This document shows positions 12,353 through 57,565 of a stretch of 64,000 bases of DNA, piece by piece (position 1 is the stretch's first letter; every line of letters begins with the position of its first letter). This DNA comes from an uncultured Gammaproteobacteria bacterium (GTDB lineage Bacteria; Patescibacteriota; Patescibacteriia; UBA9934; GWF2-40-263). A program made the translations under genes and the position numbers. The stretch covers positions 4,399 to 68,398 of the forward strand of contig CAZIDX010000007.1 of NCBI GenBank assembly GCA_964538435.1, written 5' to 3'. The notes below the pieces were generated by a model. It did not search any database. It saw nothing but the letters and a program-made list of their open reading frames with translations, and was not told the origin of the DNA.

Positions 12353-12362
12353 GTTGTCTCCG

Positions 12363-14329: not shown

Positions 14330-14940
14330 TGATCACCTCGCAATGCCCGGTAGTAGGCCTGAAAGACCTCGAGGCTCTGGTTCATGCGCTCGTAGTAGCT
14401 CCTGCGGTCTGCATAGATAGTGAGGGGCGCTCCTGCCTTGAGACAGGCCAGCGCGCTCCAGAATTTGGTCATGCGACCACAACCATCTGAGTATGGGTGA
14501 ATGCGGAAGTCGAGCTCGTACTCGAGTATTGCCAGGAATTCTGTGACTTGATCTTGTGTCAGTCCGGCCAGGCCAGACGCAAGCCACTTGAACCACACAC
14601 CCATTTCGATATCGATCCTACCAATGGGCACTCCATAGGCCTTGCCTGTGTCATGCTGGCGATACATGGAGCTGGTTTGGGTTCCTGATGTTACGGATGC
14701 AAAGAGCTGGAGCTCGAGCAGGCGCAGGTCGCGCACGCTCAGGTCACGATCTCGGTGATCCCACAGGCGATTTGCTGCGCAGACGAGTCCGCGCATTGCA
14801 CTTTCCTGCAGGGCCTCCCCTGTTTCTTCGGCCTGAGGTTTCCCCTCTCGACCCAGTGCATTGACTGAACCTGTCTGAACCGTGCGGCTCATGCCAGAAA
14901 TGCTCCGGAGGAGCACCTGGATGAACTCAGTCTTTTCCAT
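14326..14940 (-). CDS. Fic/Doc (Fido) family protein
   Basis: Fic active-site motif HPYSDGCGRMTKF (HPFx[DE]GNGR pattern) and upstream RDLRLLELQLF helix. Overlaps the HD gene stop by 14 nt. Confidence 0.65.
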   Translation of the reverse strand: MEKTEFIQVLLRSISGMSRTVQTGSVNALGREGKPQAEETGEALQESAMRGLVCAANRLWDHRDRDLSVRDLRLLELQLFASVTSGTQTSSMYRQHDTGKAYGVPIGRIDIEMGVWFKWLASGLAGLTQDQVTEFLAILEYELDFRIHPYSDGCGRMTKFWSALACLKAGAPLTIYADRRSYYERMNQSLEVFQAYYRALRGDQ

Positions 14941-18924: not shown

Positions 18925-18940
18925 CCACTACATGTTGTGG
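18925..18940 (-). promoter_or_regulatory. NrdR box 1 (CCACTACATGTTGTGG)
   Basis: 16-bp imperfect palindrome of the NrdR-box type, downstream of the -10 element. Confidence 0.6.
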
Positions 18941-18949
18941 TCCTGTTCT

Positions 18950-18978
18950 ATTGTAGACCACTATATGTAGTGGTGTCA
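18950..18978 (-). promoter_or_regulatory. nrdJ promoter TTGACA-17-TACAAT (minus strand)
   Basis: -35 is the rc of 18973-18978, -10 is the rc of 18950-18955. Confidence 0.55.
18958..18973 (-). promoter_or_regulatory. NrdR box 2 (CCACTATATGTAGTGG) within promoter spacer
   Basis: 16-bp palindrome, centre 33 bp from box 1, lying between -35 and -10. Confidence 0.6.
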
Positions 18979-19009
18979 AAATGCGGTTATCCACATATTT
19001 TGACGACAC

Positions 19010-26854: not shown

Positions 26855-26867
26855 GGGTGCATTATAG

Positions 26868-26908
26868 CAAGTTTGTGTATAAGAAAACCCGCCGTCGCTC
26901 TGGTGAGC
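26868..26908 (-). terminator. rho-independent terminator after high-GC single-gene island
   Basis: CCCGCC-N18-GGCGGG hairpin (26878-26907) followed on the minus strand by TTTTCTT. Confidence 0.55.
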
Positions 26909-26950
26909 TATGGCGGGCAGGCCCGGTTGGAATGTATCCGTGCGGGGGGT

Positions 26951-27382
26951 CTAGGCGAACGCGATGGCTGCCATGGGGAAGCGCTGGCTGCGCCGGTAGA
27001 GCTGGGCTCGCATGACCTGAGAGCGCAGGCGCTTGCCTGAGACCGGGTCCAGGAAGTTCATCTGGCTGCCGCTGGGCACCTTGCGGGCGACCTCCAGGGC
27101 GATGGTCTCGACGGCCTCGTCGTACTGTTGCGACGGTGTGACGCTCTTCTGCGCCTGTCGGGTCATCTCGTCCCAGCGCGTGAAGTTGGTGCGCGCGGTG
27201 ACGAGAAAGTTGTAGACGAAGAGCAGATCCACAGCGTTCATGCCGCTGGTTTGGATCTCGCGAACGACATCCTGAGCCAGGCTCAGGAACTCGCTTGCGT
27301 CGATGTCTGATCGTTCGTCGTAGCGACGCATCAGGCGCGCGCAGTGCTTGGCGACCGTGGATGTGAGCTGCTGCGGTGTCAC
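26951..27382 (-). CDS. hypothetical protein (single-gene high-GC island)
   Basis: Start chosen at GTG 27382 preceded by GGGAGG SD (track ORF opens at 27418). ~62-65% GC; ordinary composition. The overlapping 197-aa ORF in another frame is Arg-rich junk. Confidence 0.45.
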   Translation of the reverse strand: MTPQQLTSTVAKHCARLMRRYDERSDIDASEFLSLAQDVVREIQTSGMNAVDLLFVYNFLVTARTNFTRWDEMTRQAQKSVTPSQQYDEAVETIALEVARKVPSGSQMNFLDPVSGKRLRSQVMRAQLYRRSQRFPMAAIAFA

Positions 27383-27553
27383 GGTTTTCCTCCCAATCGG
27401 CGCAGGGTATCTGCGCACGAGTTTTGAGACTAAAATAAAAACAAGGCGCTGTCAAGGCCTTTTTCTTACCCAGAACAAATCTGGGTAGCCGCGGACTTTA
27501 GCCTGCGTTCGGACACAAGCTAAAGCTTGCGGCTACCACACACAATGAATGGA

Positions 27554-35226: not shown

Positions 35227-35940
35227 CTAGCCGAACTGCGACCCGAAGCGGGACTCGACAGCATCGATGGCTGGTCCGAAGAGCTTGTCGAGCTGCCAAT
35301 CGATCATGCCTCCCACAGCACCATCGAGAGACAGGTCGTTGAATGCCTTTGCGCGTGCGTAGCGTTCTTCAGTCTCGAGCAACACAGACACCAGACCGCA
35401 AGAGATCGAGCAGATGATGCCACAGACCAGCGACATGACCAGTGGCGATGCCTCAGCCATGGGATTCACGATCAGGAAGATCGCAGCTCCCATTGTACCG
35501 AACACAGCCATGGACAGGCGCTTGAACATGTTGATGCTCAGCGCTACGAGAACGAGTGCCTTGACGACCACCAGAACGAACGCGCTGACGAACACTATGC
35601 AGACGAATGCTGCGAGGATCAGGAACAGGATCGCGAACCCGAAGAGCTTCAGCTTGTTGCTCCAAATGTCTCCGGCAACCCCCTTGACCATCCTGACAGG
35701 AACTTCGAGCCACTGCTTGGCCGTGACCATGTAGGGGTGAGCGACCCACTCCTCGAAGCTCATGCGTGCAGCTTGCTTGGTGGAGCGGACGAGCCCTCGG
35801 ATGTCGTAGCCGATGAGGATGAGCGGGAAGATGAGCACGAGGGTAAGCAGGTCGCTCCCCATGCTCTGGCCGATGTAGCAGCCCAGAGAGCCACCAATCA
35901 GGCCAGCGCTCATGGACTTTCCAGTTTCTCTTGTGAACAT
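35227..35940 (-). CDS. hypothetical polytopic membrane protein (single-gene high-GC island)
   Basis: AGGAGG SD before ATG 35940; multiple TM helices; antisense ORF 35224..35994 is His/Asp/Glu-rich junk. Confidence 0.5.
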   Translation of the reverse strand: MFTRETGKSMSAGLIGGSLGCYIGQSMGSDLLTLVLIFPLILIGYDIRGLVRSTKQAARMSFEEWVAHPYMVTAKQWLEVPVRMVKGVAGDIWSNKLKLFGFAILFLILAAFVCIVFVSAFVLVVVKALVLVALSINMFKRLSMAVFGTMGAAIFLIVNPMAEASPLVMSLVCGIICSISCGLVSVLLETEERYARAKAFNDLSLDGAVGGMIDWQLDKLFGPAIDAVESRFGSQFG

Positions 35941-37368: not shown

Positions 37369-37418
37369 CAAACCAAAAAAATCCAGGCACCTGCTTGGAG
37401 TTTTTGGTTAATTAACAC

Positions 37419-37587
37419 TAAGGGGCCGGGTCGTTACTTGTAGCATTTCTAGCTTTTCCACATGTTTAGTACAAAAAAATGGATTTAATATCCATTTTTT
37501 TTGAAGTTTTTTGTTTACAGGTTTCAATTTATACTCGTTTAGACTCAGGAATAGAATATGAATGCTACAAGTAACGACCCGGCCCCC
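37419..37587. mobile_element. MITE-like non-autonomous element with the same terminal inverted repeats as the IS200/RAYT-like element
   Basis: TAAGGGGCCGGGTCGTTACTTGTAGCATT at 37419-37447 and its rc (26/27 nt) at 37561-37587 flank ~115 bp of AT-rich ORF-less DNA, wedged between the stops of convergent genes. Confidence 0.6.
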
Positions 37588-38672: not shown

Positions 38673-38754
38673 AAGAAAATGATACTAAACCTTTAAAAAA
38701 GGTACGTCAAGTGTTCCCCCTGCTTCTAGACTACGTTGGATGCGGGCTCTGGTC

Positions 38755-38790
38755 AATGAGAAAACCCGCCACAGCAATGCCGTAGCGGGT
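38755..38790 (-). terminator. rho-independent terminator after high-GC Nudix gene
   Basis: CCCGC-N15-GCGGG hairpin (38765-38789) with TTTTCTC on the minus strand. Confidence 0.55.
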
Positions 38791-38807: not shown

Positions 38808-40022
38808 CTAGCGGGAGCTGAGCTCTGCGCGGATGCGCTCTTGCTCGACCTTGATCTCTTGGAGCGTCGAAGCCACTGCAAGCGCGTGCTTGCGCTCGCT
38901 CATCTCGAACTTGATCTCGGTGATGTGACCACCGTAGCGCTGGTCGCTCATCTCACCCATCCAGGCAGTGCTGCCATGGAGAGTCTGGAGGCGCACCTTC
39001 CACATCCCGTCATTGCGGCGGGACTTGCGCCTGAGGTAGCGGATGACTCGCTCGAGGTCGTCAGCCAGGATACCGTTGAAGCACGGAGGTGATCCAACCC
39101 AGTCTTCGAGGCCGAGGAACACTTCGATGCGTGCATCCTGACAGACTGACATCTTCAGATCGTAGTTGAAACCAGGCCCCATCCAGCTCACACACTTTTC
39201 GAGCACGGGCTTGGATGCACGCACAGGTACTGCTCGCGGAGGCTCGATGAGCCCCTTGAGCTGCGCCTTCATCAGTGCGGCAGAGGTGAACCCGTCCGTG
39301 ATCACCCCATCGCGCACCATTTCGTAAAGCTCGGTGAGACTCAGAACCACAGGTCCGAGCACGGACTCGGAAACGTCACGCGAGATCTTGCTCTCGTCGA
39401 TGATGACGTCGGTGATCATGAGGATCTCGGGGTCCATGCCCAGCACACCCGTATCAGGGTCTGTGATGCCGAGCGGGAACATCCTGGAGGTCTTGGTCAG
39501 GATTGCTCCGACCTCCTCCTGGGCCTCGCGGATGGCGCACTCTTCCATGGCTTCGTCTGGCATGCGTGTTCCGCGCGGAAGCTCGATGGTCCAAGCGCGC
39601 TTGGCGTGCTTGTATGAGCGGACGAGAACGAATTCATTGTCCACGGTCCGCAGCAGCACTGCGGCACCGACATCCCTGCCGATGTTCCACTCGACCACTT
39701 GGTAGGTTCCGACCACGGGCGCTCCGTCTTCCTCGCGCGGAGGAAAGAGCACGGTGTAGACCGGGATGACCCAGTACGGTGTGGTGACTACGCGATGGAG
39801 TCCGATGATCTGAACTTCGCCCTCACTCCAGTCTCCCAGAGGAACACTTTCGTCTTCCAGGCTCGCGACCACACGCTCGATAGCTTCTCTTCGAGTGCTT
39901 TCGGCGTACTTGACCCGGGCGCGCCTGAGCGATCCCTTGGCCAAACTCACCCCCAGGTCAATGACCTGATACTTGTCTTCCTTTCCCATTTTGACTCGCT
40001 TTGGACCAGGCTGCACGAGCAT
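38808..40022 (-). CDS. multidomain Nudix hydrolase family protein (single-gene high-GC island)
   Basis: Nudix box GTRMPDEAMEECAIREAQEEVG. ~60% GC. Start uncertain: ATG 40022 (MLVQPG) or 39989 (MGKED). The track ORF extends artefactually to 40379 across the next gene. Confidence 0.5.
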   Translation of the reverse strand: MLVQPGPKRVKMGKEDKYQVIDLGVSLAKGSLRRARVKYAESTRREAIERVVASLEDESVPLGDWSEGEVQIIGLHRVVTTPYWVIPVYTVLFPPREEDGAPVVGTYQVVEWNIGRDVGAAVLLRTVDNEFVLVRSYKHAKRAWTIELPRGTRMPDEAMEECAIREAQEEVGAILTKTSRMFPLGITDPDTGVLGMDPEILMITDVIIDESKISRDVSESVLGPVVLSLTELYEMVRDGVITDGFTSAALMKAQLKGLIEPPRAVPVRASKPVLEKCVSWMGPGFNYDLKMSVCQDARIEVFLGLEDWVGSPPCFNGILADDLERVIRYLRRKSRRNDGMWKVRLQTLHGSTAWMGEMSDQRYGGHITEIKFEMSERKHALAVASTLQEIKVEQERIRAELSSR

Positions 40023-40146
40023 GGCGCCGAAGTGTGAGTGTGAATACACGAACATCCTGCATGAGAATGCCGCGTGCACTGCTGGGTAGCAGAGGAGGAA
40101 TTTACCATAAAATAAGGGTTTTGTCAAGGTAAAAAAGCAATCAAAA

Positions 40147-40175
40147 AACCCGGCTTGAGCCGAGTTTTTCTCTTT
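40147..40175 (-). terminator. putative terminator after rmlD-like gene
   Basis: A6-ACCCGGC-TTGA-GCCGAGT-T5, imperfect short stem. Confidence 0.35.
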
Positions 40176-45321: not shown

Positions 45322-46916
45322 TTTTTGTAGATTTGATAGAGGGATTCTTGGTCGTAGGTCTCAATGAGCTTGATTCCCAGGTCCATGTCTGCGAGTCGTG
45401 AATTGTTCAAATATTCAATGTCCTCAGAAGGGAATGTTATGCCGTAATAATACACTGAATCCGTCTTTGTGAGGAGCGGAAGCGCTTCGTATGTAGCATC
45501 ATCGCGGAGCGGGTACATGACCTGTCTGTGAGGGAAGATGATCTTATCAGCACGATCAACAATGATGATACTACTCTCTTGTGTGTGCGTGAGGATGCTC
45601 TCCTGGATCTCCCCTGACCTGGACAGTGTGTCTGCTACTTTTACGAGACCGTCTTGCCCCTGTGAGAACACAGCGTTGAAGTTGAGGAATACCACCATGA
45701 AGAGCAACCCAGCAGAGATGAGTTTTGCTTGCTTTGAATAGATTGTCTGTGCAAGCTTTTCTATTGCAATGGCAATGAGCGGAATCGACAAGATGTACAT
45801 TGGGAGCCAGTAGCGCACATAGGAGTTTGCCATGGTTATTTGGGTTGGATCTGGGTTGTCATGAATCTCCCAACTTCCGTACATGAGCGTGAGGTAACCA
45901 AAGATCATTGCTCCGGTTGCGATAATCCCCCACTTTTTCCAATTCTTTTTGTCTTTCCAGCACACCACCCCCAAACCAATCGCGGCAAGTGATGTGAGCC
46001 ACCAGAACATGGATCCAAAATAGATTGAGAAGTGCTCCCAGGCCGAAGCTGGGTGAATGCCAAACGGGAAGAGCTCGACTGTGTCTGCGGATTCATCTGC
46101 GCTGAGTGTGATCTGAGCTGAATCGATCCCAACCGTATAGCCTGTTGTGAGTGGACCGCCGTATGTGAGTGTGTTGAATGCAAAAAGAATCAAGAGGCCC
46201 AGGGCGAGTCCGAGCAGGCCGCGGAGAAGGTGTTTGTATTTGAGGCGCCTAATATTCAGCGCGAGCAATGCACCCAGAGCCAAGGCGATCCAACCGAACT
46301 CTGATGTTCTTACAAAGAGAGCGAGTCCGAGCGAGAGTCCAGCAAGAATGTCGCTGAGCCATGGTGCTCGCTTGAGTTTTTCAAATGGTTTGCAGACCCA
46401 GAGCCAGAGCGCAAGCACGATCAGATCAATGAAAAGTACGTTGTGCATGAGTCCGCGCGCTGAGTAGTACCAGATGGCTGGGTGGAGCAAGAAGAGTGTG
46501 AATGCCATCAATCCAATCTTTGATCCAAAAAATTTCTCTGTGAGTTTTCTAAATGCCAGCCCTGCACCGACGGTTATTGCCGGAGTGAGCACCCAAAGCA
46601 CCCAGGAACCAAAGAGCGACATAAGGGCGCCATAGAGCACTGGGAGGCCAAGGAAACTGCCTGGATAGAGGTAGCCTTCAACTGAAACTGTGCTGCGTGG
46701 GTGAATGCGATCATCAAGAAAAAGCGAGGTTAAGTTTGGTCCATCATGCAAGACCCCTTCTGCAGCAAAACGCTCTGCAAAAAAGGCGTTTGCTGTCTCA
46801 TCTGGCGAGATGTAGAGCTGCTGCTCATTGATGAGGATGAGTGATGTGAAAAAAAACAGAACCGCTACAGCAGCAACGATCCACCTTCCAGATGACTTCT
46901 TAGAACTAGAGACCAT
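45318..46916 (-). CDS. GT-C fold membrane glycosyltransferase (PMT / ArnT-like, GT39/GT83 type)
   Basis: ~11 TM helices, first extracytoplasmic loop with a DE motif (YISPDETANAF), large C-terminal soluble domain. Confidence 0.6.
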   Translation of the reverse strand: MVSSSKKSSGRWIVAAVAVLFFFTSLILINEQQLYISPDETANAFFAERFAAEGVLHDGPNLTSLFLDDRIHPRSTVSVEGYLYPGSFLGLPVLYGALMSLFGSWVLWVLTPAITVGAGLAFRKLTEKFFGSKIGLMAFTLFLLHPAIWYYSARGLMHNVLFIDLIVLALWLWVCKPFEKLKRAPWLSDILAGLSLGLALFVRTSEFGWIALALGALLALNIRRLKYKHLLRGLLGLALGLLILFAFNTLTYGGPLTTGYTVGIDSAQITLSADESADTVELFPFGIHPASAWEHFSIYFGSMFWWLTSLAAIGLGVVCWKDKKNWKKWGIIATGAMIFGYLTLMYGSWEIHDNPDPTQITMANSYVRYWLPMYILSIPLIAIAIEKLAQTIYSKQAKLISAGLLFMVVFLNFNAVFSQGQDGLVKVADTLSRSGEIQESILTHTQESSIIIVDRADKIIFPHRQVMYPLRDDATYEALPLLTKTDSVYYYGITFPSEDIEYLNNSRLADMDLGIKLIETYDQESLYQIYKK

Positions 46917-47524: not shown

Positions 47525-49672
47525 ATGTATCACAAGATTCACCATACCATTGTTACGCTCGTTTTTCTAGCGTTTTTTGTGGGAAACACCTTTGCGTTGC
47601 AGAGCACTTCGCTGGGCCTTATTCTTCTCATATTCTACCTACTTTTCTTCGGTTGGGAGCTGGGCGGACTCATCACCACTTCTGAGAAAGCTATCCTGCG
47701 CTGGTGGCTTGGTGTGTGGCTTCTTCTCTCTCTGATCATGATCATTGGGAGTGCTGCGTACTACACAACATTTTTAACAGCAGAGGTTGTGTATGTGATT
47801 GTGCTTCTTACGCCTCCGATCGTGCTCTGGGCAGCCACTCGGCACAAACACAAGCCACTGATGCTTCATGCGCATGATCTGTGGAAAGAGAAGAGGCATC
47901 GCATCCCGGGTGTTGTGTTTTTGCTTGCAGCGCTGTTTCTTGTTTTGCTCTCAATGTATTTTAGTGTTCTAGGTGACCACCTTGTTACAGATTCTGTGCG
48001 CTCAGTTTGGGAGCGTGTTCCTGGAGGAGTGTTTCAGCTCTTTGCTCTTGCTTCCCTTGTGCTGTTTGCGCTTCTTCTTCGCGGAAAAGAACGTGCACTC
48101 ACCATCTTGCTCTACGGAGGGATACTTTTTGCTGCTGTGTCTGTTGTTGCCATTGTCTTCCCTCTTGGATTCGGGTTTGACTCGTTTATTCACAAAGCCA
48201 CAGAGTCACATCTAGCTGAGTTTGGAACCATCAGTCCAAAACCGTTTTACTATATTGGACAATACGCCCTGGTGTTATTTGCTCACCACGGTTTTTTACT
48301 TCCTGTTGGCCTTGTTGATACGTATCTTCTCCCAACGCTCATTGCACTGCTGCTCCCATCTGCTTGGTACTTTGCTGCGGCGCATATCACCCGGAAGAAA
48401 TCTGTGGCTATGGCAACGCTCCCAGGTGTTTTCCTGCTCCCGCTTTCAGGATTCATTGTCACAACACCGCAGGGACTTGCAAATCTTTGGACACTCCTGA
48501 TTGTTTTGGCTTCTGTGCCTTTCTTGCTTGAAAAGGAGCATCCGCGCTTGCTTGTGCTTGGACTTACAGCTGTGGCAACGCTACTTATCCATCCGATTGC
48601 CGGGATCCCGGTCATGCTCTACCTTGCCCTGCTTTTCTCTGACCCATCGCGCATTGATCCGCGCACACCAGTGCTGAATCGCATCTTACGCATCATTTTA
48701 ATTGCGTTTGCGTCTGTTGTTCTTCCACTGAGTTTTCTTGTAAATGCACTTATTAGCGGCCAGTCGCTTGGCATTGATTGGGCCGCGCTCAATCCTCTCA
48801 CCTGGCTTGGGGAGCTGAACATTAGCGTGTTCTTTGAGAATCGCTTTGAGCCGCTTCTAGATCTTGTTTATCTCTACGGACTCAATGCAACCTTGATTGT
48901 GTTTGCGATTGCTGGCATGGCTTGGGTGATGTATCGCAAAGAACTTTCAACGCGGTTCCGTGTGCTTGTTGTAATGACGCTTGTGCTTGCGATCAATTAT
49001 CTCATCATGAGCACAACACTTGAGTTCACGTTCCTTATCGATTACGAGCGCTCAAACTATGCTGCGCGCCTGGTTCCGCTCATGGTACTGTTCCTCTCTC
49101 CTCTTTTGATCCTTGGCCTCTCTCACCTGCTCATCAACCTTAAGTCTCGACCACTTGTGCTGCGTACGTGTGCGCTTGTGTTGTTTGTTGCGATTGCTAC
49201 GAGCACGGTGTATATGTCTTACCCTCGACGCGATGCGTATGACACAAGCCGTGGGTTTAATGTTGGGCAGTCAGATATTGATGCGGTCTATCTCATTGAG
49301 ACGCTTGCAGGCGAGGAAGAGTATGCCGCACTAGCAAATCAATCTGTGTCTGCGGCTGCGATTAGTGAGATTGGCTTTCGCTACTACAACGATTTCTTCT
49401 TTTATCCGATCCCGACTGGTGGGGCGATGTACGAATACTTCTTGGACATGAACGAAATGCCAACGCGAGAGAAGGCCCAGGAGGCGCTTGCACTCATCGA
49501 TGATCCGGATGTTGAGACCATGTTTTATGTGGTGAACAACTATTGGTGGGAGGCACCGCGGATCATTGAAACAGCAAAGTCGAATGCGGATGATTGGCGG
49601 TCTGTGGGCGACGAGGGGCAGGTGTATATTTTCAAGTACGAGTTTGGTGAGAGCACAGTCGAGATGGAATAG
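47525..49672 (+). CDS. large polytopic membrane protein (715 aa), possible glycan polymerase/transferase
   Basis: More than 12 TM helices plus a C-terminal soluble domain; embedded in the glycosylation locus; no catalytic motif recognised. Confidence 0.5.
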   Translation: MYHKIHHTIVTLVFLAFFVGNTFALQSTSLGLILLIFYLLFFGWELGGLITTSEKAILRWWLGVWLLLSLIMIIGSAAYYTTFLTAEVVYVIVLLTPPIVLWAATRHKHKPLMLHAHDLWKEKRHRIPGVVFLLAALFLVLLSMYFSVLGDHLVTDSVRSVWERVPGGVFQLFALASLVLFALLLRGKERALTILLYGGILFAAVSVVAIVFPLGFGFDSFIHKATESHLAEFGTISPKPFYYIGQYALVLFAHHGFLLPVGLVDTYLLPTLIALLLPSAWYFAAAHITRKKSVAMATLPGVFLLPLSGFIVTTPQGLANLWTLLIVLASVPFLLEKEHPRLLVLGLTAVATLLIHPIAGIPVMLYLALLFSDPSRIDPRTPVLNRILRIILIAFASVVLPLSFLVNALISGQSLGIDWAALNPLTWLGELNISVFFENRFEPLLDLVYLYGLNATLIVFAIAGMAWVMYRKELSTRFRVLVVMTLVLAINYLIMSTTLEFTFLIDYERSNYAARLVPLMVLFLSPLLILGLSHLLINLKSRPLVLRTCALVLFVAIATSTVYMSYPRRDAYDTSRGFNVGQSDIDAVYLIETLAGEEEYAALANQSVSAAAISEIGFRYYNDFFFYPIPTGGAMYEYFLDMNEMPTREKAQEALALIDDPDVETMFYVVNNYWWEAPRIIETAKSNADDWRSVGDEGQVYIFKYEFGESTVEME

Positions 49673-49677
49673 TCATC

Positions 49678-49721
49678 AAAACACCTCATTTCCTTGAGAA
49701 AGAGGTGTTTTTGTATTGACA
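49678..49721 (+). repeat. 44-bp direct repeat copy 1 (hairpin + TTGACA module)
   Basis: AAACACCTCATTTCCTTGAGAAAGAGGTGTTTTTGTATTGACA; 42/43 identical to 50971-51013. Confidence 0.75.
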
Positions 49722-49860
49722 CAACTTGGCACAAATGCTAGGTTTCATTGTCGATTCATTTCGAAAGCCCCTCAGGGGGCGCCCTGGATCTTCACGAGGA
49801 AGTGAAAGGCTTCCCTGGTATCTCTCAGGAGATGCTGCTTCAGATGATACGGAGACAGAC

Positions 49861-50913
49861 ATGTCCCCCAAAGTTCCTGAAGAACTGTCCGCTGAGCAGC
49901 AGCTCGCGATCCTTCGCGACTGGCTCATGAACCACAACCAGGCGTTCGGACATATGCGCGGCAAGCTCGGTGGATCCACCATGGATCTACTCGGCAGGCT
50001 GCTCGAGACCCGTTCGCCCTCTGCCGCTCTGGAGGCGTACAACGCTCTGGTCAGCGACATGCGCATTATGTTCAAGCACCTGGCCAAGCTACGCCGGGAT
50101 GGCCACACCGTAGCCGAAGCTGAGCTGATGCGCGCCCTGACCCAGCCGGGCTACCTGATCACGGGTGAGACTGTCCCTCTGGAGAGCACAGCACCTTACA
50201 CACTGTTCATGATCGACCCAGAGCTCACCTTCGCAACCGCGAAGTTCCTGGAAGACTGGAAAAACGTGTACCTGAACCAGTGTCCTCGTGTCCGGTGTCG
50301 GGCAGTCGTCGAGCCAGAGTTCGCTTTGGATCGCTACGGCAACCTCATCTGGGAGGTCTACCTGCGTGAGATGCGGGAAAACTATTACGACCGAATCGGT
50401 TTCCTCAACGACGACTTGCAGCGAGCTCAAACGCTCGTGTCGTATGTTCTGGAGACCTTCGGGCGAAGGCTCGAAATCTCAACCAAGCGCGTCGGCACCA
50501 AGACAACAGACTTTATCCCCATGGGGTGGAGAACGAGACAAGCCCCTCGAACCAGAGCCCAGCTCACAGCTAATCACCGGGTAGTCAACATGCTCTCCTG
50601 CGTGTTTGGAAAGCCACTGGAGCAGGGACAGGTGTTGAGTGCGTTCCCACGTGCTGAGCAGCACCGTGTGGCAACCTGGCAGTTCCACGCACCTGCAGCC
50701 ATGAACCTGAGTAGCCCCAGACGTACCTTCTACGTCGGCTTCCACCCCCGGGCGGAGCACGAGAAGTGGCAGCGTGCACGACCGCAGCTCACCAGTCGCG
50801 GCACAGCCAACGGCTGGGGTGCGATCATCATCCCCAGATCCATGCTCGACATGTACGACCGTGAAGGGCACTTCCTTTTCCACAACCGCAACCTGGATTT
50901 CCCTGAATCCTAG
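49861..50913 (+). CDS. hypothetical protein (high-GC cassette 1)
   Basis: ~65% GC ORF. Start chosen at ATG 49861 (GGAG 8 nt upstream); the ORF opens at 49726 overlapping the promoter-like module, so the true start is uncertain. Confidence 0.45.
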   Translation: MSPKVPEELSAEQQLAILRDWLMNHNQAFGHMRGKLGGSTMDLLGRLLETRSPSAALEAYNALVSDMRIMFKHLAKLRRDGHTVAEAELMRALTQPGYLITGETVPLESTAPYTLFMIDPELTFATAKFLEDWKNVYLNQCPRVRCRAVVEPEFALDRYGNLIWEVYLREMRENYYDRIGFLNDDLQRAQTLVSYVLETFGRRLEISTKRVGTKTTDFIPMGWRTRQAPRTRAQLTANHRVVNMLSCVFGKPLEQGQVLSAFPRAEQHRVATWQFHAPAAMNLSSPRRTFYVGFHPRAEHEKWQRARPQLTSRGTANGWGAIIIPRSMLDMYDREGHFLFHNRNLDFPES

Positions 50914-50927
50914 ATTGCACCACGAAC

Positions 50928-50968
50928 GCCCCTGTTGGTTCACACCGGCCGGGGCGCTTTCTATTTCT
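50928..50968 (+). terminator. GC-rich hairpin terminator
   Basis: CGCCCC-N18-GGGGCG followed by CTTTCTATTTC; near-copy of the terminator at 51580-51618. Confidence 0.55.
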
Positions 50969-50970
50969 AG

Positions 50971-51013
50971 AAACACCTCGTTTCCTTGAGAAAGAGGTGT
51001 TTTTGTATTGACA
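50971..51013 (+). repeat. 44-bp direct repeat copy 2 (hairpin + TTGACA module)
   Basis: AAACACCTCGTTTCCTTGAGAAAGAGGTGTTTTTGTATTGACA, followed by a 16-nt spacer and TAAGGT. Confidence 0.75.
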
Positions 51014-51088
51014 AATCCTTAAAAAGGTGTAAGGTGGCTTCTTGTCGAATACCCCCCTACGGTAGGGAAAGCCGAATAGAATGTAGAG

Positions 51089-51562
51089 ATGCTAGGACGA
51101 GTTATGATCACCCTCAAAGTGACCATTGGCGACCACCTCGAACAGGTGCTCAGGGTTTCCGACAATGACCCTGACGCCGAGATCTTGATCGACGCAGCGC
51201 TCGACAGCAAGTGCGTCATGACCCTGACGGTCCCGCAAGAGCCCGAGTGCGCTGCTGCTCTTGGTCGTTTGGTGTTTGGCCAGGATCTGCCCACGGACAA
51301 GGTGGTGCTCACGGACAAGATCACGGAGCTGTCCAAGACCACAGACAAACTCGGGCTCAAGACCACGGTTCACACGACCCTGACGCGGACTGACAAGCTC
51401 CGCTACATCTGGCAGGTCGTGGAGAAGAGCGAAGCTGACCTGGTCAAGTACTCGGCGTTTGGTCAGGGATCGTTGAAGGCGGTCAAACAAGCCTTGGCCG
51501 AGCTCGGTCTGCATCTGGGTATGGACCTGTCCGAGATCAAGGACCAGCTTCCTCAGCCCTAG
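51089..51562 (+). CDS. hypothetical protein (high-GC cassette 2)
   Basis: 157 aa, ~60% GC; alternative start ATG 51104. Confidence 0.45.
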   Translation: MLGRVMITLKVTIGDHLEQVLRVSDNDPDAEILIDAALDSKCVMTLTVPQEPECAAALGRLVFGQDLPTDKVVLTDKITELSKTTDKLGLKTTVHTTLTRTDKLRYIWQVVEKSEADLVKYSAFGQGSLKAVKQALAELGLHLGMDLSEIKDQLPQP

Positions 51563-51579
51563 GGCACACAAGCACGCGA

Positions 51580-51618
51580 CGCCCCGTCGGTATCACCGGC
51601 CGGGGCGTTTCTTATTTT
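51580..51618 (+). terminator. GC-rich hairpin terminator
   Basis: CGCCCCG-N14-CGGGGCG followed by TTTCTTATTTT. Confidence 0.6.
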
Positions 51619-51651
51619 GAATCAAAAAACCAGCGCATGGCTGGTGTTTTG

Positions 51652-52635
51652 TTACTTGCGGAAAATATTCTCTACAATCTCTTCGAGGGTTACGTCTGCT
51701 ATTGAGATGTCTTTGACTCTGTGTTTTGTTACCAGGTCTTTGATAATGCCTGGTGATTTTTCTGCTGGGATTCTCAGCGATGCGCTAAATGGTGAGTGCT
51801 CGAAGATTTTTCCGTAGCTTTGCAGATCTTTTTTGTACACCCTGTCAAAGAACTCTACCTCGAGATATTTGTGGTCGCTGTACTTTTCTACGATTTCTTT
51901 GAGTGAGCCGTCGTATCCAACCTCGCCCTCGTCGATGATGATGAGGCGCTTGCAGAGGTTTTCGACGTCGTCCATGTTGTGCGACGTTAGGATAATGGTG
52001 GTTCCTTCTTTTTTGTTGTGTTCGCGCAGGAAGTTGCGGATGTTTTTTTGTGAGAGTACGTCTAGGCCGATGGTTGGTTCGTCTAGGAAGAGGACCTTTG
52101 GGTTGTGGAGGAGTGAGGCCAGGAGTTCGCATTTCATTCGCTGTCCGAGTGAGAGCTTGCGGACTTGGATATTTAGAATATCCCCGATCTCCATAAGCTC
52201 TGAGAAGTCTTTGATTCTTTTTCGATAGGTTCTCTCTGGGATGTCGTAGAGTCTTTGAATGAGTTTGAATGACTCGATGGCTGGGAGGGTCATCCAGAGC
52301 TGGAACTTTTGCCCCATTACGATTGAGATTTTCTTTTTGAACTCGTTCTCCCTGTGAATTGGTGTGTGTCCATCGACTGTAATCTCTCCAACGCTTGGTG
52401 TGAGGATTCCTGAGAGCATCTTTAGAGTCGTCGTCTTCCCTGCCCCGTTCTTTCCGATAAAGCCGATGAATTCGCCTGGCTTAATATCAAACGACACGTG
52501 CTTTACAGCCTCTTTTGTGAGTTTCTCTCTGTGAAAGAGCGCTTTGAGCGATCCTCTGAGCCCCTCTGCTTTTTCGTGATACGTAAAAATCTTGCTTACG
52601 TCTTTTACAGAGATGATGGGTGTTGTGTCTGGCAT
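51652..52635 (-). CDS. ABC transporter ATP-binding protein (ABC-2 exporter type)
   Basis: Walker A GKNGAGKTT, signature LSLGQRMK, Walker B LFLDEPT, H-loop TSHNM. Confidence 0.85.
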   Translation of the reverse strand: MPDTTPIISVKDVSKIFTYHEKAEGLRGSLKALFHREKLTKEAVKHVSFDIKPGEFIGFIGKNGAGKTTTLKMLSGILTPSVGEITVDGHTPIHRENEFKKKISIVMGQKFQLWMTLPAIESFKLIQRLYDIPERTYRKRIKDFSELMEIGDILNIQVRKLSLGQRMKCELLASLLHNPKVLFLDEPTIGLDVLSQKNIRNFLREHNKKEGTTIILTSHNMDDVENLCKRLIIIDEGEVGYDGSLKEIVEKYSDHKYLEVEFFDRVYKKDLQSYGKIFEHSPFSASLRIPAEKSPGIIKDLVTKHRVKDISIADVTLEEIVENIFRK

Positions 52636-52636
52636 A

Positions 52637-53434
52637 TTATCCTTGAGCGCTTTTGTAATGTCTCAGCCCCTTGTTCCAGAAGAGTGATGAGAGAAGATAA
52701 AAAATGAGTGCAAGACCTGCGGCAACAATGACATCCATGTAATCGACATTGCCGAAGAATGCTCTTGCTGGGACTGTGAACATGAATGCGAGCGGGATGA
52801 TGAAAGAGAAAAACATCTTTGCAAATCCTTTGAAGATCGTGATTGGATACTCACCGAGCTTCATGATGCTGTTTCTCAGATACTGCGGGGTTTCAATGAT
52901 GTAGAAGAAGTTGATTGTTCCTAGCATGAGTGTGAATGAGAAGTGCAGGACGAACCCAATGAGCAGGAATGGAATGTAGGTCATCAAGTAAATCGGATCA
53001 GCACTTGTTTGCGCGCCGTAAACAATGAGGAGCACGGCTGCAATAATGGCTGGTGTTGAGAAAATGACATCAATGAAACGATAGCTTAGGTATGCCCTGA
53101 GGTTTACTGGTGTGACAAGCAAGAGATCAAAGCTCCCCTTATCAACCAAGCGCATGATTCGAGTAAATCCACGTGTGTACGTTGCCCAGGATATGCCGTC
53201 GATGAAGAAATAGGTTCCAAGCAGCACATACATGTGACTGATATCCCACCCACCGATGAGTTGCACTTGTCCGTAGATCGCCTGGAAGAATATGATCGTG
53301 ATGGCAATGCGTAGGAGTGTTGCAAACGTAATGATTGAAAACGTAAATACATCACTAGTCCGATCCATGGTCTCTAGCTTGATACAGATGGCGCATAATT
53401 GCAGATGTTTCTTTACGCTCATATCACCCACCAA
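52637..53434 (-). CDS. ABC-2 family transporter permease
   Basis: Six TM helices; immediately upstream of the ATPase gene; overlaps the next permease. Confidence 0.65.
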   Translation of the reverse strand: MVGDMSVKKHLQLCAICIKLETMDRTSDVFTFSIITFATLLRIAITIIFFQAIYGQVQLIGGWDISHMYVLLGTYFFIDGISWATYTRGFTRIMRLVDKGSFDLLLVTPVNLRAYLSYRFIDVIFSTPAIIAAVLLIVYGAQTSADPIYLMTYIPFLLIGFVLHFSFTLMLGTINFFYIIETPQYLRNSIMKLGEYPITIFKGFAKMFFSFIIPLAFMFTVPARAFFGNVDYMDVIVAAGLALIFYLLSSLFWNKGLRHYKSAQG

Positions 53435-54230
53435 ATGCTTCGTATTTCTTTATTCCACGTTTCCACAGTATCGCGACAAGAATAGCCAAGATGATTGTCC
53501 AGATCGTTTGGATACCAATGCCCATTGCAATCTCAACCCAGCTTAGATTTCCCACGAACGCATCCACGAGAAAAGCTCCGATGTACTTAAATGGCAAGAC
53601 AGTGCCGAGTATTTGAATCCATCCTGGGAGGAATGCGAGTGGAATCAGTGCTCCCGCGAGGAAAAACAGGAAGATCTCTAGAACAAAGGAAAGGATATCT
53701 GAGTAGAGCATCCAGAACTCAATGATTCCAATCAGAACATCGATGAGAAACAGAATGTTGATTGCACCGATCACTGTCACTGCAAGCACGAGATACGAGA
53801 TTGGATTTGTGATGAGCTGGATGTGACTTGAGAACAGCAAAACAAGCACTGCAAGCACGGGCAACCCTAGAACTATCCTAAACAATCTCCGTGAGAGCGA
53901 GCGCCAGTAGTGGTAGGAGAAATAATTCATTGGACGAGTGAGATACTTTGAAAGCTCGCCTTCTCGAATCTCATACGCAACTGGAACGTTTGCGTAGATA
54001 GCTGAAAGGAGGTAGGTGATCAAAATATAGTAGGTCACCATTTCCCTTTTTGAATACCCCATGAGCTCAGCATTTGCTCCATACACATCGTTCCAAAGAT
54101 AGAATGTGCTGATCAAAAAAATTGAAGCAATACCAAATTGCACCAAGCTGCTTACGCGGTACTCAAGTGTCTCTTGCCATGCGCTTTTAAAAAGAAAAGC
54201 GTACATGGCACATCGCTTCTTGATCGTCAT
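53424..54230 (-). CDS. ABC-2 family transporter permease
   Basis: Six TM helices; operon with the two genes above. Confidence 0.65.
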   Translation of the reverse strand: MTIKKRCAMYAFLFKSAWQETLEYRVSSLVQFGIASIFLISTFYLWNDVYGANAELMGYSKREMVTYYILITYLLSAIYANVPVAYEIREGELSKYLTRPMNYFSYHYWRSLSRRLFRIVLGLPVLAVLVLLFSSHIQLITNPISYLVLAVTVIGAINILFLIDVLIGIIEFWMLYSDILSFVLEIFLFFLAGALIPLAFLPGWIQILGTVLPFKYIGAFLVDAFVGNLSWVEIAMGIGIQTIWTIILAILVAILWKRGIKKYEAFGG

Positions 54231-54324
54231 GCATCTATTGTACCAAAAAACCGACTAGATTGAACTCATCCTGTTTAGCATTTAGCAGGCACAAAAATGA
54301 AAACTCGCATGTCAGTCTATGGGT

Positions 54325-54354
54325 GATTTTTGTTCGCACCTACGAAAAAGACTC
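54325..54354. repeat. 30-bp palindromic repeat family copy
   Basis: GATTTTTGTTCGCA-CC-TACGAAAAAGACTC. Confidence 0.55.
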
Positions 54355-54409
54355 ACCCGGGGAATCATCTTACTTTGACCATTATTCTGAAAGGTGCGTT
54401 GAGGTGTGC

Positions 54410-54439
54410 AATTCTTTTTCGTAGGTACGAACAAGAATT
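54410..54439. repeat. 30-bp palindromic repeat (best copy; 14-2-14 with 13/14 complementary arms)
   Basis: AATTCTTTTTCGTA-GG-TACGAACAAGAATT. Confidence 0.6.
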
Positions 54440-54485
54440 ACGTTTGGGTTTGTTTGTGGTGTGTGGGTTGAGAAATAGAGAGAGC

Positions 54486-54647: not shown

Positions 54648-55849
54648 TTATTTGATCTCCTCAATAATCTTTTCAAGCTTGCTCACGTATTCTTTTATTC
54701 CGTAGCGGAGGCCGTGTTCGAAGATGCGTTGTGTTTTTGTCCACCAGACGTCTTTGTCTGTTGCGATTCGTTTCATGGCTTCGACGAGCTCTGGAACTGA
54801 TCCTGGTTCAACGAGAATTCCTGTTTCTCCGTCTTTTATTAGCTCTGGGATGCCTCCGATGCGGGACGCGATTACTGGGACGCCGACTTTGTAGCTTTCG
54901 TAGATGACGGTTGGTGAGTTTTCGTAGCAGAGGGATGGGACGAGGATGGCGTCGCTGGATTTTACGATCTTGAGCAAGTGTTGCATTGAAACAAAACCGT
55001 GGTAGTGCACGCGTGGATCCAGGCTTGCGCGTGCGGTTACGTAGTCTGAGAGCGAGCCGTCTCCTGCGATGTGTAGTTGCACGTCTGTGCCGAGCCCTTC
55101 CATTGCTTCAAATAACTCTACGATGCCTTTGTGCTTTTCAAGTTGCCCTACATACAAAAAGCGTGCTGCGCCTGATACCTGCTTTTCACGTGGAGGGCAG
55201 TCAACAGGCGGTAGTGGATTTGGTAGGACATGTGTTTTTGAGCGCGAAAACATTCCTCGTTTGTTGTAAAACTCTGCGAGGAAGTGCGATGGTGAGATGA
55301 CAGCGTCTGGATTTCCAATTGAGTTCTTTACTCCGTTTTCATACATCTTTCGAAGCGGCCCTACATTGAGCCCACTGTCTTCTTTTCCATGAATGAGCAG
55401 TCCGCTTGGAACGGAAAGCTGTACATCGTGAAGGGTGTGAATGTGCGGGATCCCTTGCTTTTGAATCTCCTTTCCAACAGAAACTCCAAGACCCTTGAGA
55501 TTGTGGGTGATGATCACGTCTGGGTCTTCATCTTGAATGACGCTTCGGATTGCGCGGCGTGCAAATGGACTGTATAGATCGATGAGGTGCCAAAATGCAC
55601 GGATGGGAAATGGGACGTATCTATCATGCTTGATGTAGTAGAGGTTCAGTGGATAGAAACGATACACAGCCTCAAGATGCCTCTCTCGGATGTGAGGGAA
55701 AATACTGTGCAACCCATGATAACCTTCGGTCGTTAACACAAAAACATCATGACCTGCTTCGTAAAGAGCATCGGCCACACGCTGGGCCACAAGTTCTGCT
55801 CCTCCGCGTGCCTGTGGCGGGTAGAGATTTGAAACGATTCCAATTTTCA
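54648..55849 (-). CDS. GT4 family glycosyltransferase
   Basis: GT-B fold. Start at ATG 55849 (MKIGIVSNLYPP), directly after the stop of the upstream GT4 gene (track ORF overlaps it). C-terminal E-x7-E region (PSLCYENSPTVIYES, IGGIPELI). Confidence 0.75.
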
Positions 55850-55851
55850 TG

Positions 55852-57021
55852 TTAGTACGTGCGCTTGCTTTGCTGCATGAGCACTGATAAATAGGTTTGC
55901 TCGAGTTTATCAATTAGTGGCTCCCAGTCAAATCTCTGCTCTGCGTGTTTTCGCGCAGAGAGACCGAAACGACTGCGGAGCTCTTCTTGCTCAAGAAGGA
56001 GGGTAATCGCCTCTGCAAGCTCATTTTGATCGTTTGGCGGTACAAGTAGACCGGTATCCCCGTCTCGAACAACCGTCCTGACACCAGGAAGATCTGATGC
56101 AATGGATGGGATTCCTGTTGCGGCTGCTTCGACGGCTACGAGCCCAAATGCCTCTGCTCTCTTTGTTGATGGAAACACATGGAAATCCCCTGCTCTGTAA
56201 TAGCGGGGCAGATCCTCTTCTGACACACTCCCGGCGAATGTTACGCGAGCGCGCATCTGTTTGCTTTCCAGAATCTCTTCAAACTGATGCTTAAGCTCAC
56301 CAGAACCAACAATCATAAGGTGCCAGTCTTTTTCTTTGATGCTTTCAAGAGCCTCAAAAAGCACGGGGAGCCCCTTGAAATAATGTGCCTCGTCTAGTCC
56401 GCCTACAAACACCATCACTGGAGTAGATTCAGAAATATTGTGGCGCGCGCGGATCATTGGTTCTTTACCTGGACAGAAAGACTCAAGATCAACTCCAAAC
56501 GGATGTTCCTCTAGTCGATCGGCAGCCCCATCGATTTTAGCGAGAGCAGATGTGTTTGCGTAATCAAGCGAACTCGACAGGATGCGGTCCACGCGATTTA
56601 CAAGCCATGGGAACAAGAGCCTACGATGCGCACCAAAGACGGCTCCGCGCACTCCACCGGCAACAGCATCCATGTGGTAGGTCATGACAAGCCCCTGGCT
56701 TTGGCGCATGGCCTTGCGCACGATTGTGGGCTCGGCTCCGCCAAAGAATGGGTAGTGCAAATGAACAAGATCGAATCCTGAAAGTCTGCGAAACAAAGAC
56801 GGGAGCACACTGCCGTTTCCGATGGTGAGGATGCTTGGGAGTCTGTGCACATAACGCGGGTCCTCGCTGTCGTCTCCGTCTTTTGAGCGCGTGGTGAACA
56901 CATGTACGTTGTAGCCTCGCTCGCGCAAACGCTCAGTGTATTCAAAAGCCACCTTCCCCATTCCGCCACGATACGGTGGGTAGGTGCATACGACATGTGC
57001 GATTTTTGGTTTCTTGTTCAT
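55852..57021 (-). CDS. GT4 family glycosyltransferase
   Basis: KIAHVVCTYPPYRGGMG N-terminal motif and C-terminal EAFGLVAVEAAATGIPSIASD motif. Confidence 0.8.
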   Translation of the reverse strand: MNKKPKIAHVVCTYPPYRGGMGKVAFEYTERLRERGYNVHVFTTRSKDGDDSEDPRYVHRLPSILTIGNGSVLPSLFRRLSGFDLVHLHYPFFGGAEPTIVRKAMRQSQGLVMTYHMDAVAGGVRGAVFGAHRRLLFPWLVNRVDRILSSSLDYANTSALAKIDGAADRLEEHPFGVDLESFCPGKEPMIRARHNISESTPVMVFVGGLDEAHYFKGLPVLFEALESIKEKDWHLMIVGSGELKHQFEEILESKQMRARVTFAGSVSEEDLPRYYRAGDFHVFPSTKRAEAFGLVAVEAAATGIPSIASDLPGVRTVVRDGDTGLLVPPNDQNELAEAITLLLEQEELRSRFGLSARKHAEQRFDWEPLIDKLEQTYLSVLMQQSKRTY

Positions 57022-57379: not shown

Positions 57380-57562
57380 ACGTTTATCTTGCTGTGAGTG
57401 GGATCCTTCGCTCCGCTCAGGATGACGGGGTGGAGTAGGGTTTGACTTGCTAGAGGTGGGATCCTTCGCTCCGCTCAGGATGACGGGGTGGAGTAGGGTT
57501 TGACTTGCTAGAGGTGGGATCCTTCGCTCCGCTCAGGATGACGGGGTGGAGTAGGGTTTGAC
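57380..57562 (+). repeat. 58-bp tandem repeat, ~3.1 copies
   Basis: Unit GTGGGATCCTTCGCTCCGCTCAGGATGACGGGGTGGAGTAGGGTTTGACTTGCTAGAG starting 57398, 57456 and 57514 (perfect copies; third truncated), with a partial unit 57380-57397. No unique spacers, so not CRISPR. Confidence 0.8.
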
Positions 57563-57565
57563 TAT

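Follow-up and report, generated by a model that had tools for sequence, protein, structure and literature searches.

Two unrelated accessory gene cassettes with a duplicated terminator–promoter boundary at an insertion hot spot in a Patescibacteria chromosome

Introduction

Little is understood of how Patescibacteria, whose genomes are tiny, acquire accessory genes. A stretch of 64,000 nucleotides from such a genome (contig CAZIDX010000007.1 of assembly GCA_964538435.1, positions 4,399 to 68,398), called the window here and numbered from its first letter, carries two open reading frames (ORFs) of high GC content, ORF1 and ORF2, in tandem, each preceded by an almost identical copy of a short repeat that joins a hairpin to a promoter –35 box. 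How did two such genes come to stand side by side behind the same boundary sequence? An earlier inspection of the letters and their translated reading frames (the sequence-only reading) had proposed that the repeat is a reusable landing or expression pad into which foreign genes were dropped twice. Our analysis favours another account, to which we give a probability of roughly 0.55: two unrelated monocistronic accessory cassettes were added successively at a recombination-permissive hot spot, and the repeat, named R, was copied at one of these additions. The arrangement looks like the recombination scar of tandem gene acquisition, not like a dedicated cassette-capture system.

Results

A 43-nt repeat joins a predicted terminator to a –35 box

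The locus reads, from left to right, membrane-protein gene, R1, cassette 1 (leader 1, ORF1, terminator T1), the tetranucleotide CTAG, R2, and cassette 2 (leader 2, ORF2, terminator T2). R1 (49679–49721) and R2 (50971–51013), both on the + strand, are direct copies of AAACACCTC(A/G)TTTCCTTGAGAAAGAGGTGTTTTTGTATTGACA that agree at 42/43 positions and bracket the ORF1 cassette. Shuffled sequence yielded no such match in any of 100 trials (expected number 0). The sequence-only reading had described a duplicated 44-bp module; the duplication, the 42/43 identity and the –35 box carried within it stand, and the length is corrected to 43 nt and the start to 49679. The first 33 nt (49679–49711 in R1) fold into a hairpin of –14.9 kcal/mol in R1 and –17.1 kcal/mol in R2 (z about –3), and the sole difference between the copies, A versus G, sits at an internal mismatch of the stem. 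Downstream of the hairpin come UUUUUG and then TATTGACA, and the repeat ends exactly with the last base of the –35 hexamer TTGACA (49716–49721 and 51008–51013), leaving the –10 boxes outside. The hairpin has an A-run on its 5′ side and a T-run on its 3′ side, and the GC content of the module is 15/43 (35%).

R1 begins 6 nt past the stop codon of the membrane-protein gene, and three related loci (L007, L016 and L017; L numbers denote loci of related genomes) have a terminator of their own at the equivalent position. R appears to be the native intrinsic terminator of the membrane-protein gene, its T-run abutting the –35 TTGACA, and is probably bidirectional, with the A-run and T-run arranged as for a convergent junction. 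R2 begins 4 nt past the end of T1, the intervening nucleotides being CTAG. Because T1 is a complete terminator ending only 4 nt earlier, the R2 hairpin is redundant as a terminator, and this redundancy marks R2 as a copy rather than an element selected in place.

A T-run directly abutting (A)TTGAC(A) also occurs elsewhere in the window, at 38745–38770 (GGGTTTTCTCATTGACC) and 40127–40170, and in relatives, namely in L007 (CTGCTTTTTTATTGAAACCATTGACA and GGTTTTTGGATTGACG), L064 (GGGCTTTTTTATTGACA) and L095 (GGGGCTTTCTTAATTGACA). Judged from these examples, the architecture of R is common punctuation of these compact genomes, and what is unusual about R is only that two 98%-identical copies bracket a gene. 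No copy besides R1 and R2 was found in the 64-kb window with up to 3 mismatches allowed, and the wider search for further copies that the sequence-only reading had proposed returned none from 1.5 Mb of related loci or from a viral collection; a search of 85 related loci for the R module or for T gave chance 12–15-mers only. The idea of a landing or expression pad was not borne out, since the module is an ordinary terminator and –35 layout, present in two copies in 64 kb and without an associated recombinase.

Each cassette is predicted to be an autonomous transcription unit

Read from the sequence, the predicted –10 box of cassette 1 is TAGGTT (49739–49744, +), 17 nt downstream of its –35 hexamer, and that of cassette 2 is TAAGGT (51030–51035, +), with a 16-nt spacer. 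Since the –35 box lies within the copied piece, each cassette has a complete predicted promoter. The leaders measure 116 nt before ORF1 and 53 nt before ORF2, placing the start codons 139 nt past R1 and 75 nt past R2, in agreement with the earlier estimate of ~70–140 nt. The hexamer TAAGGT also precedes the island gene at 10206; the TTGACA-N17-TAAGGT arrangement that had been reported in front of this 10.2-kb island is indeed present, at 10155–10183, about 9 nt to the left of where it had been placed. In the whole window the pattern TTGAC[AT]-N16-18-TAnnnT occurs at 10 sites, 7 of which lie directly upstream of high-GC islands, at 1509 (–), 1602 (+), 10155 (+), 27455 (–), 40127 (–), 49716 (+) and 51008 (+).

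At the other end, both cassettes close with a GC-rich predicted intrinsic terminator. T1 occupies 50927–50966 (+; stem 50927–50956 followed by a U-rich tail, –21.8 kcal/mol) and T2 occupies 51578–51618 (+; stem 51578–51609 followed by a U-run, –24.0 kcal/mol). Their alignment matches in 36/43 columns, with 1 substitution and 5 small indels, and its score of 42 was reached by 0/2000 shuffles (mean 12.4, maximum 22). An exact 14-mer, CACCGGCCGGGGCG, is common to both. T1 and T2 are homologous by these measures; they had been called near-identical, and although each ORF does have a similar hairpin of its own, homologous at 36/43 columns is the better description. On this anatomy each cassette would be an autonomous unit comprising a sigma-70-type promoter, a 5′ leader, an ORF and a GC-rich intrinsic terminator.

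The two pairs of boundary sequences differ in divergence: R1 and R2 show 1/43 differences, versus about 10/46 for T1 and T2 (Fisher p 0.008). Because T1 and T2 have diverged more than R1 and R2, the R copy is younger than the T pair, and because the divergence is unequal, the R and T boundary pairs did not come from one event.

ORF1 and ORF2 are unrelated

ORF1 (49861–50913, +, 350 aa) and ORF2 (51089–51562, +, 157 aa, alternative start 51104) have no mutual protein similarity (BLASTP E 2.4). The locus is therefore not a simple tandem gene duplication. Tandem paralogues, the finding that by the sequence-only reading's own account would have undone a cassette interpretation, are rejected on this score and on the identity of the two genes, ORF1 having its own 264-cluster family and ORF2 being alpha-CTD-like (CTD, C-terminal domain). 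The profile searches of both ORFs that the same reading had suggested thus gave a family without a Pfam domain in one case and a partial match to a known domain in the other.

A word-indexed search with ORF1 gave a single match at 30% identity, as for an orphan, and a profile search of 1.84 billion representatives recovered 264 clusters at E<=1e-3, 105 of them at E<=1e-30, whose members are mostly about 350 aa long. ORF1 thus belongs to a large uncharacterised family, and it found no match in Pfam, NCBIfam, PHROG, PADLOC or PDB. Its AlphaFold2 model, built from a 2-sequence alignment, is poor (predicted local distance difference test, pLDDT, 41). In the ten loci read, the ORF1-family gene is a stand-alone unit in a small-genome context, and the closest homologue, in L088, is 44% identical. 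GC content is 0.59 and GC content at third codon positions (GC3) about 0.70 for ORF1, compared with 0.49 and about 0.51 for the backbone. ORF1-family genes were richer in GC3 than their neighbours in 10/10 genomes examined, so the high GC of ORF1 is in part a family trait. The ORFs had been taken as foreign; the GC excess itself (0.59 and 0.58 versus 0.49) is confirmed, but for ORF1 GC alone is no proof.

The C-terminal half of ORF2 resembles the RNA polymerase alpha-CTD. A phmmer search of PDB matched 9zum_A (E 3.7e-9), 7ye1_A (4e-8) and the E. coli alpha-CTD 1lb2_B (5.8e-5); NCBIfam rpoA models matched residues about 80–152 with their last ~70 positions (E 4.8e-12), and Pfam RNA_pol_A_CTD matched at E 2.4e-4. 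The rpoA scores were <=45 bits, versus cut-offs of 228–523 bits, and ORF2 as a full-length RpoA is rejected because only the alpha-CTD-like part matches, with scores far under the cut-offs. ORF2 is, by these profile matches, a stand-alone alpha-CTD-like protein. Among 5.8 billion proteins no homologue was found besides ORF2 itself, and its single-sequence structure model is of low confidence (pLDDT 46). The GC content of ORF2 is 0.58 and its GC3 about 0.76, a pattern that favours the + strand. Domain scans found no transposase domain in ORF1 or ORF2, and neither matched a defence-system model.

The ORF1 family has an apparently structured leader

The 5′ leader of cassette 1 (49745–49860, +) contains two hairpins with YYAG tetraloops, an architecture conserved in 10 ORF1-family loci. 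Hairpin 1 is GCCCC[UCAG]GGGGC (49767–49780); hairpin 2 is GGUAUCUC[UCAG]GAGAUGCU (49817–49836) and is followed by CUUCAGAUGA and the ribosome-binding site GGAG. Both tetraloops are closed by a C-G pair, and the 3′ order is YUUCAGA, ribosome-binding site, start codon. The other family leaders lie in L003 (3790–3885), L086 (1020–1100), L087 (7900–8000), L088 (3240–3353), L089 (2400–2500), L090 (1660–1760), L091 (3890–4000), L095 (1140–1280) and L097 (2920–3000). Loops and layout are kept although the ORF1-family proteins are only 26–44% identical. The stems covary: the two hairpins are 83% and 89% paired, with double changes in 6/6 and 5/6 pairs, and 0/500 shuffles were equal to this, figures to be read with the caveats that the hairpins were chosen by requiring pairing and that a palindromic DNA operator would covary likewise. 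Together these features suggest that the ORF1 family has a conserved 5′ leader that is apparently structured. One sub-group of the family has a common promoter, TTGAAT-N16-TAnTAT, together with the box CACCUUGAAAAAGC. Rfam gave only noise at E<=10 for 49650–51700, an interval that includes the leader, and the database ORF calls P0004 and P0008 wrongly translate the leader.

The cassettes lie at a variable junction between conserved genes

The left flank is the gene of a 715-aa polytopic membrane protein (47525–49672, +), which has no match in Pfam or NCBIfam. Orthologues were found in 80 loci of metagenome-assembled genomes (MAGs) at 72–30% identity, almost all of them labelled Candidatus Uhrbacteria or Patescibacteria, and a CDP-alcohol phosphatidyltransferase gene is always adjacent upstream. 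The window also contains genes for a class II ribonucleotide reductase, HflX, dihydrolipoyl dehydrogenase (Lpd), S8 and S41 peptidases and a glycan-synthesis cluster. By its gene content and relatives, the window is chromosomal DNA of an uncultured Candidatus Uhrbacteria lineage (candidate phyla radiation, CPR) without a close sequenced relative.

In six relatives (L093, L094, L007, L008, L009 and L014) the gene order is conserved on both sides, with the NTP-transferase (37590), CDP-alcohol transferase (46906) and membrane-protein (47525, +) genes on one side and GT4-GT4-GT2...S8 peptidases (54648 onward, –) on the other. The right flank is a GT4 glycosyltransferase gene (54648–55913, –), convergent on the membrane-protein gene in relatives, whose orthologues in the same six loci are 59–65% identical. 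The distance between the stop codons of these two flanking genes varies widely. It is about 20 bp in L093 and about 10 bp in L094, each with one shared bidirectional hairpin, and it is 2.0 kb in L008 and L014, 2.9 kb in L007 and 3.3 kb in L009, each with different cargo, which in the relatives includes fused ABC exporters, small ORFs and, in L014 and L019, an IS200/RAYT-like gene. In the window it is 4.97 kb and holds cassettes 1 and 2 and an ABC-2-type exporter operon of backbone-like GC (51652–54230, –; one ATPase and two ABC2_membrane_6 permeases by Pfam and NCBIfam), which has a bidirectional terminator hairpin predicted by folding at its convergent 3′ end (51629–51645). The ABC-2 operon, which L093 and L094 lack in this interval, makes up the lineage-specific remainder of the 5-kb content. 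This comparison shows that the junction between the membrane-protein and GT4 genes is an insertion hot spot. The earlier suggestion that genes were dropped in here is upheld by synteny, the site being empty (10–20 bp) in L093 and L094 and occupied by other cargo in L007, L008, L009 and L014.

A second variable junction lies where the NTP-transferase gene meets the epimerase gene. L093 has nothing there, L094 a 259-aa gene and L007 two high-GC genes, and the window carries a high-GC 404-aa NUDIX gene (38808–40022). This NUDIX island is absent from L093 and L094 and is the only island that could be checked by synteny.

Several kinds of mobile-element signature were looked for. A blastn search against 50,697 phage records gave no match and there were no PHROG matches, and scans of viral contigs for the R module and the ORF1 family were negative. 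No tRNA or tmRNA integration target was found in the window, and Rfam reported nothing at gathering score across the whole window.

Related loci contain similar arrangements

Two unrelated high-GC genes (BLASTP E 2.0) occupy the NTP-transferase/epimerase junction of L007 (Candidatus Uhrbacteria BH28; 1045–3200, –), one NUDIX-like (2222–3076) and one without a Pfam domain (1187–2047). Each is followed by a homologous 3′ untranslated region of roughly 100 nt and a terminator whose hairpin and T-run are 25/25 identical, and each terminator runs straight into the next promoter. This pair is the closest analogue of the R/cassette arrangement. In L088, the intergenic modules beside the closest homologue of ORF1 form a mosaic of repeated combinations. 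Across 1.5 Mb of related loci we counted 19 local intergenic direct repeats of 30–200 nt spaced 0.3–6 kb apart, some of which accompany paralogous genes (L064), so that not all represent one phenomenon. The arrangements in L007 and L088 suggest a recurring process, and a general cassette-shuffling mechanism may exist in Patescibacteria, a proposition that draws on three loci only.

Other features of the window

Besides the cassettes, at least eight high-GC islands occur in the window, most of them holding 1–3 genes, with GC3 of 0.68–0.9 against about 0.5 for the backbone and almost all without Pfam domains: 1–1213 (–), 1801–2358 (+), 10206–10913 (+), 11099–13067 (–), 13757–14940 (–), 26862–27455, 35227–35940 (–) and 38808–40022 (–). 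Most are preceded by the consensus TTGACA-N17-TAnnnT, and some of these promoters directly follow a terminator hairpin. The first island (1–1213; GC 0.65, GC3 about 0.9) encodes a lipoprotein-like solute-binding protein. In the high-GC pair at 13757–14940 (–), the segment 13757–14329 matches PADLOC Csx3/AAA models (E 8.8e-11) and 14326–14940 matches Fic-like models (PDC-S04, SoFic; Pfam Fic 0.0025).

A gene for a REP-associated tyrosine transposase (RAYT) at 6598–7458 (Pfam Y1_Tnp 5.6e-11, NCBIfam REP_Tyr_transpos 6.9e-22) is flanked by 49-nt inverted repeats with GTAG (GGGGCCGGGTCGTTACTTGTAGCATT; region 6547–7490), and a REPIN-like doublet of its repeat lies at 37418–37450 and 37561–37586. 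A separate family of repeats of roughly 30 nt around TTCGTA-GG-TACGAA is found at 10970–10998, 11044–11078, 45337–45365, 54319–54351 and 54404–54442. Copies are paired at the edges of two islands: one pair follows the 10.2-kb island gene, and the other lies in the gap that separates the ABC operon from the GT4 gene, at the right edge of the 5-kb insertion. The family may serve as an operator or represent a small mobile repeat. A tandem repeat at 57382–57563 consists of three 58-nt units, 91–100% identical and with a TTGACT box, within an 800-bp low-GC insertion between the second GT4 and GT2 genes, a spacer that in L094 measures only about 67 bp. The class II ribonucleotide reductase gene has a promoter (18940–18985, –; TTGACA-N18-TACAAT) that overlaps the palindromic boxes ACCACTACATATAGTGGT and ACCACAACATGTAGTGGT, which look like NrdR boxes.

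Discussion

How the arrangement may have arisen

Under the successive-addition account, R, a terminator with its abutting –35 box, would have been copied when one of the cassettes was added, the copying taking place at the latest insertion. The likeliest route would be homologous recombination through the short terminator–promoter module. If an incoming circular or allelic fragment carries its own R, one crossover with the resident R leaves direct repeats bracketing the insert. The recombination could have been a Campbell-type integration of a circular or allelic fragment bearing R plus a cassette, or alternative alleles of the locus could have exchanged unequally; both routes would give R-cassette 1-R-cassette 2. 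The cassettes themselves would come from one pool with related, older 3′ terminators.

Several points weigh against this account. There is a single repeat pair in 64 kb, a search of viral contigs and of 1.5 Mb from relatives gave no further copy, and 43 bp is short for RecA-dependent recombination. The unequal divergence of R and T means that one simple event cannot explain both. The high GC of ORF1, shared with its family in 10/10 genomes, is not proof of recent transfer. The promoters and terminators of the cassettes are predictions, the recombination is one that we infer from anatomy and comparison, and the circular intermediates are hypothetical. Moreover, the nearest relative has only 72% protein identity, so that the comparison offers no strain-level empty site or alternative allele.

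Other explanations can be set against the same observations. An assembly artefact, whether a 1.29-kb contig misplaced because of a shared 43-mer or the collapse of an element that is circular or tandem, would agree with the fact that cassette 1 is a separate repeat-bounded unitig in the k=31 Logan graph, and that graph taken alone also permits a path from membrane-protein gene through R to cassette 2 plus a separate circle of R and cassette 1. We regard this as highly improbable: 43 bp is shorter than a read and than the large k that modern assemblers use; in independent unitigs from two runs the A/G difference links R1 with the membrane-protein gene and R2 with T1; and the linear path uses every unitig exactly once. 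The unitigs of these runs (SRR8146440 and SRR8146443) have the same junction k-mers, with breaks at the repeat as k=31 predicts. A biological alternative is that a donor (for example another member of the Patescibacteria, a plasmid or a phage) already equipped with R- and T-like punctuation supplied both genes as a single block, R1 being part of the insert. A single source would fit the near identity of R1 and R2 together with the homology of T1 and T2, and the GC contents of the two ORFs are almost equal (0.59 and 0.58); the neighbouring L007 cassettes likewise share 3′ modules, and phage arrays of promoter-early stem-loops (PeSLs) have this appearance (PMC2839356). We nevertheless find a one-block arrival unlikely, since R, at 35% GC, is unlike the cargo and R1 lies 6 nt past the membrane-protein stop codon, where L007, L016 and L017 keep their own terminator. 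Without R1 the membrane-protein gene would have no terminator, and no phage or plasmid gene is nearby, the viral scans being negative.

The conservation of both ends, with everything between the –35 box and the terminator unrelated, could also be explained if a whole expression unit (R, leader, ORF and T) had been duplicated and one interior later replaced by exchange through the R and T ends, giving a fixed frame with exchangeable content. Such a history needs more events and a donor with the same R and T ends, and it predicts equal divergence of R and T, which is not seen (p 0.008); we judge it quite improbable. Least credible of all, in our view, is a site-specific cassette system of integron or transposon type, with R as its recombination site or as a 43-bp target-site duplication. 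It would account for a hairpin repeat at the cassette boundaries, and there is a RAYT gene 43 kb away (6598–7458) as well as RAYT-like genes at the same hot spot in L014 and L019. But no integrase or transposase is present in or next to the cassettes, which have predicted promoters of their own; R is merely a 33-nt hairpin without attC core sites and is missing 3′ of cassette 2; there are no terminal inverted repeats, and a 43-bp target duplication would be far beyond known ranges; and R differs from the REP (repetitive extragenic palindromic) sequence of the RAYT gene (GGGGCCGGGTCGTTACTTGTAGCATT). Successive addition with copying of R therefore remains the account that we prefer.

The locus is a clean and testable example of accessory-gene gain, in which the space between two conserved genes is vacant in some relatives, holds other cargo in others and here contains two self-contained genes with copied boundaries. 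If short terminator–promoter modules are indeed recombination substrates, as the shared boundaries in two further loci (L007 and L088) hint, this would explain how single genes arrive both expressible and insulated. The analysis also yielded, as by-products, a large and uncharacterised family of proteins whose leader is conserved and apparently structured, and a stand-alone alpha-CTD-like protein.

Comparison with known systems

Integrons have an adjacent tyrosine-recombinase gene, intI, an attI site and a promoter, Pc, from which their generally promoterless cassettes are expressed. The attC site at the 3′ end of a cassette is an imperfect palindrome of 57–141 bp with R''/L''/L'/R' boxes and a GTTRRRY core. 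The present locus shares with integrons the tandem order of unrelated single-gene units separated by hairpin-forming repeats, but its repeat stands on the 5′ side of each cassette, with none following the last, and there is no intI, attI or attC architecture. No integrase domain was found in the roughly 45 window ORFs scanned, and the upstream neighbour is the membrane-protein gene. R contains no RYYYAAC or GTTRRRY core, and T1 and T2 are plain GC stems with U-runs. The sequence-only reading, too, had seen no attC-like structure, in agreement with a 33-nt hairpin that lacks the cores and is absent after cassette 2. With no integrase, no attC and each cassette having its own predicted TTGACA-N16/17-TAnnnT site and terminator, an integron array is rejected. 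Transposable elements that duplicate their target have a transposase or inverted-repeat ends and produce duplications of 2–15 bp; a transposon is rejected here in view of the 43-bp repeat, the lack of a transposase domain in ORF1 and ORF2, and R and T not being inverted copies. REP and REPIN sequences are short GTAG palindromes, present in many copies and related to the repeats that flank a RAYT gene. R and T are local only and unlike the GGGGCCGGGTCGTTACTTGTAGCATT repeats flanking the RAYT gene of the window, and a REP/RAYT origin is likewise rejected. Chromosomal insertion hot spots, or additive flexible genomic islets, between convergent genes offer a likeness, with conserved flanks that are empty or variously filled and a convergent junction neutral for insertion, the difference being that a duplicated terminator–promoter boundary is not their usual hallmark.

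PeSLs of T4-type phages are composite promoter and stem-loop units situated on the flanks of ORFans, where they bring about shuffling and give rise to mini-circles (Arbiol et al. 2010, PMC2839356; Comeau et al. 2014, PMC4122927). Their exchanges in hyperplastic regions create indels, swaps and mini-circles (PMC2839356, PMC4122927). R is like a PeSL in combining a putative terminator stem-loop (–15 to –17 kcal/mol, with a U-run) and a sigma-70-type promoter element (TTGACA) in an AT-rich spacer of 35% GC, in standing directly upstream of genes without assigned function in a hypervariable region, and in having near-identical copies that bracket a single gene, a geometry that gives insertions, deletions and mini-circles by homologous recombination. 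It differs in its setting, a Patescibacteria chromosome syntenic with MAGs and not a T4-type phage; in its number, two copies in the 64-kb window, both in the variable interval, against about 50 per phage genome; and in its extent, since R, known here from its sequence anatomy, spans the hairpin and the –35 box and not the –10 box. We would venture, as a speculation that we think has perhaps one chance in several of holding, that CPR chromosomes diversify in a PeSL-like manner, cassettes being gained, lost and swapped through short terminator–promoter modules, possibly as small circles, with the 1,292-bp unit of R plus cassette 1 as one mobile module and the ORF1 family as a gene that travels with a previously undescribed leader RNA.

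The lambdoid moron that Juhala and Hendrix reportedly described in 2000 is an additional gene, equipped with a promoter and a factor-independent terminator of its own, that lies between two conserved genes and often deviates in base composition. Each cassette here is similarly a predicted promoter–ORF–terminator unit between genes that are adjacent in relatives (10–20 bp in L093 and L094), and its GC is deviant (0.58–0.59 versus 0.49 in the backbone). In contrast to a moron, the cassettes lie in no phage or prophage and have no phage genes nearby, they stand two in tandem with duplicated boundaries, and the GC excess of ORF1 is common to its homologues elsewhere. The best description of the locus is a tandem of two moron-like accessory cassettes that occupies a chromosomal hot spot and whose duplicated terminator–promoter boundary is PeSL-like. 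The example is new and the lineage unusual, while the kinds of genome plasticity that it displays are already known.

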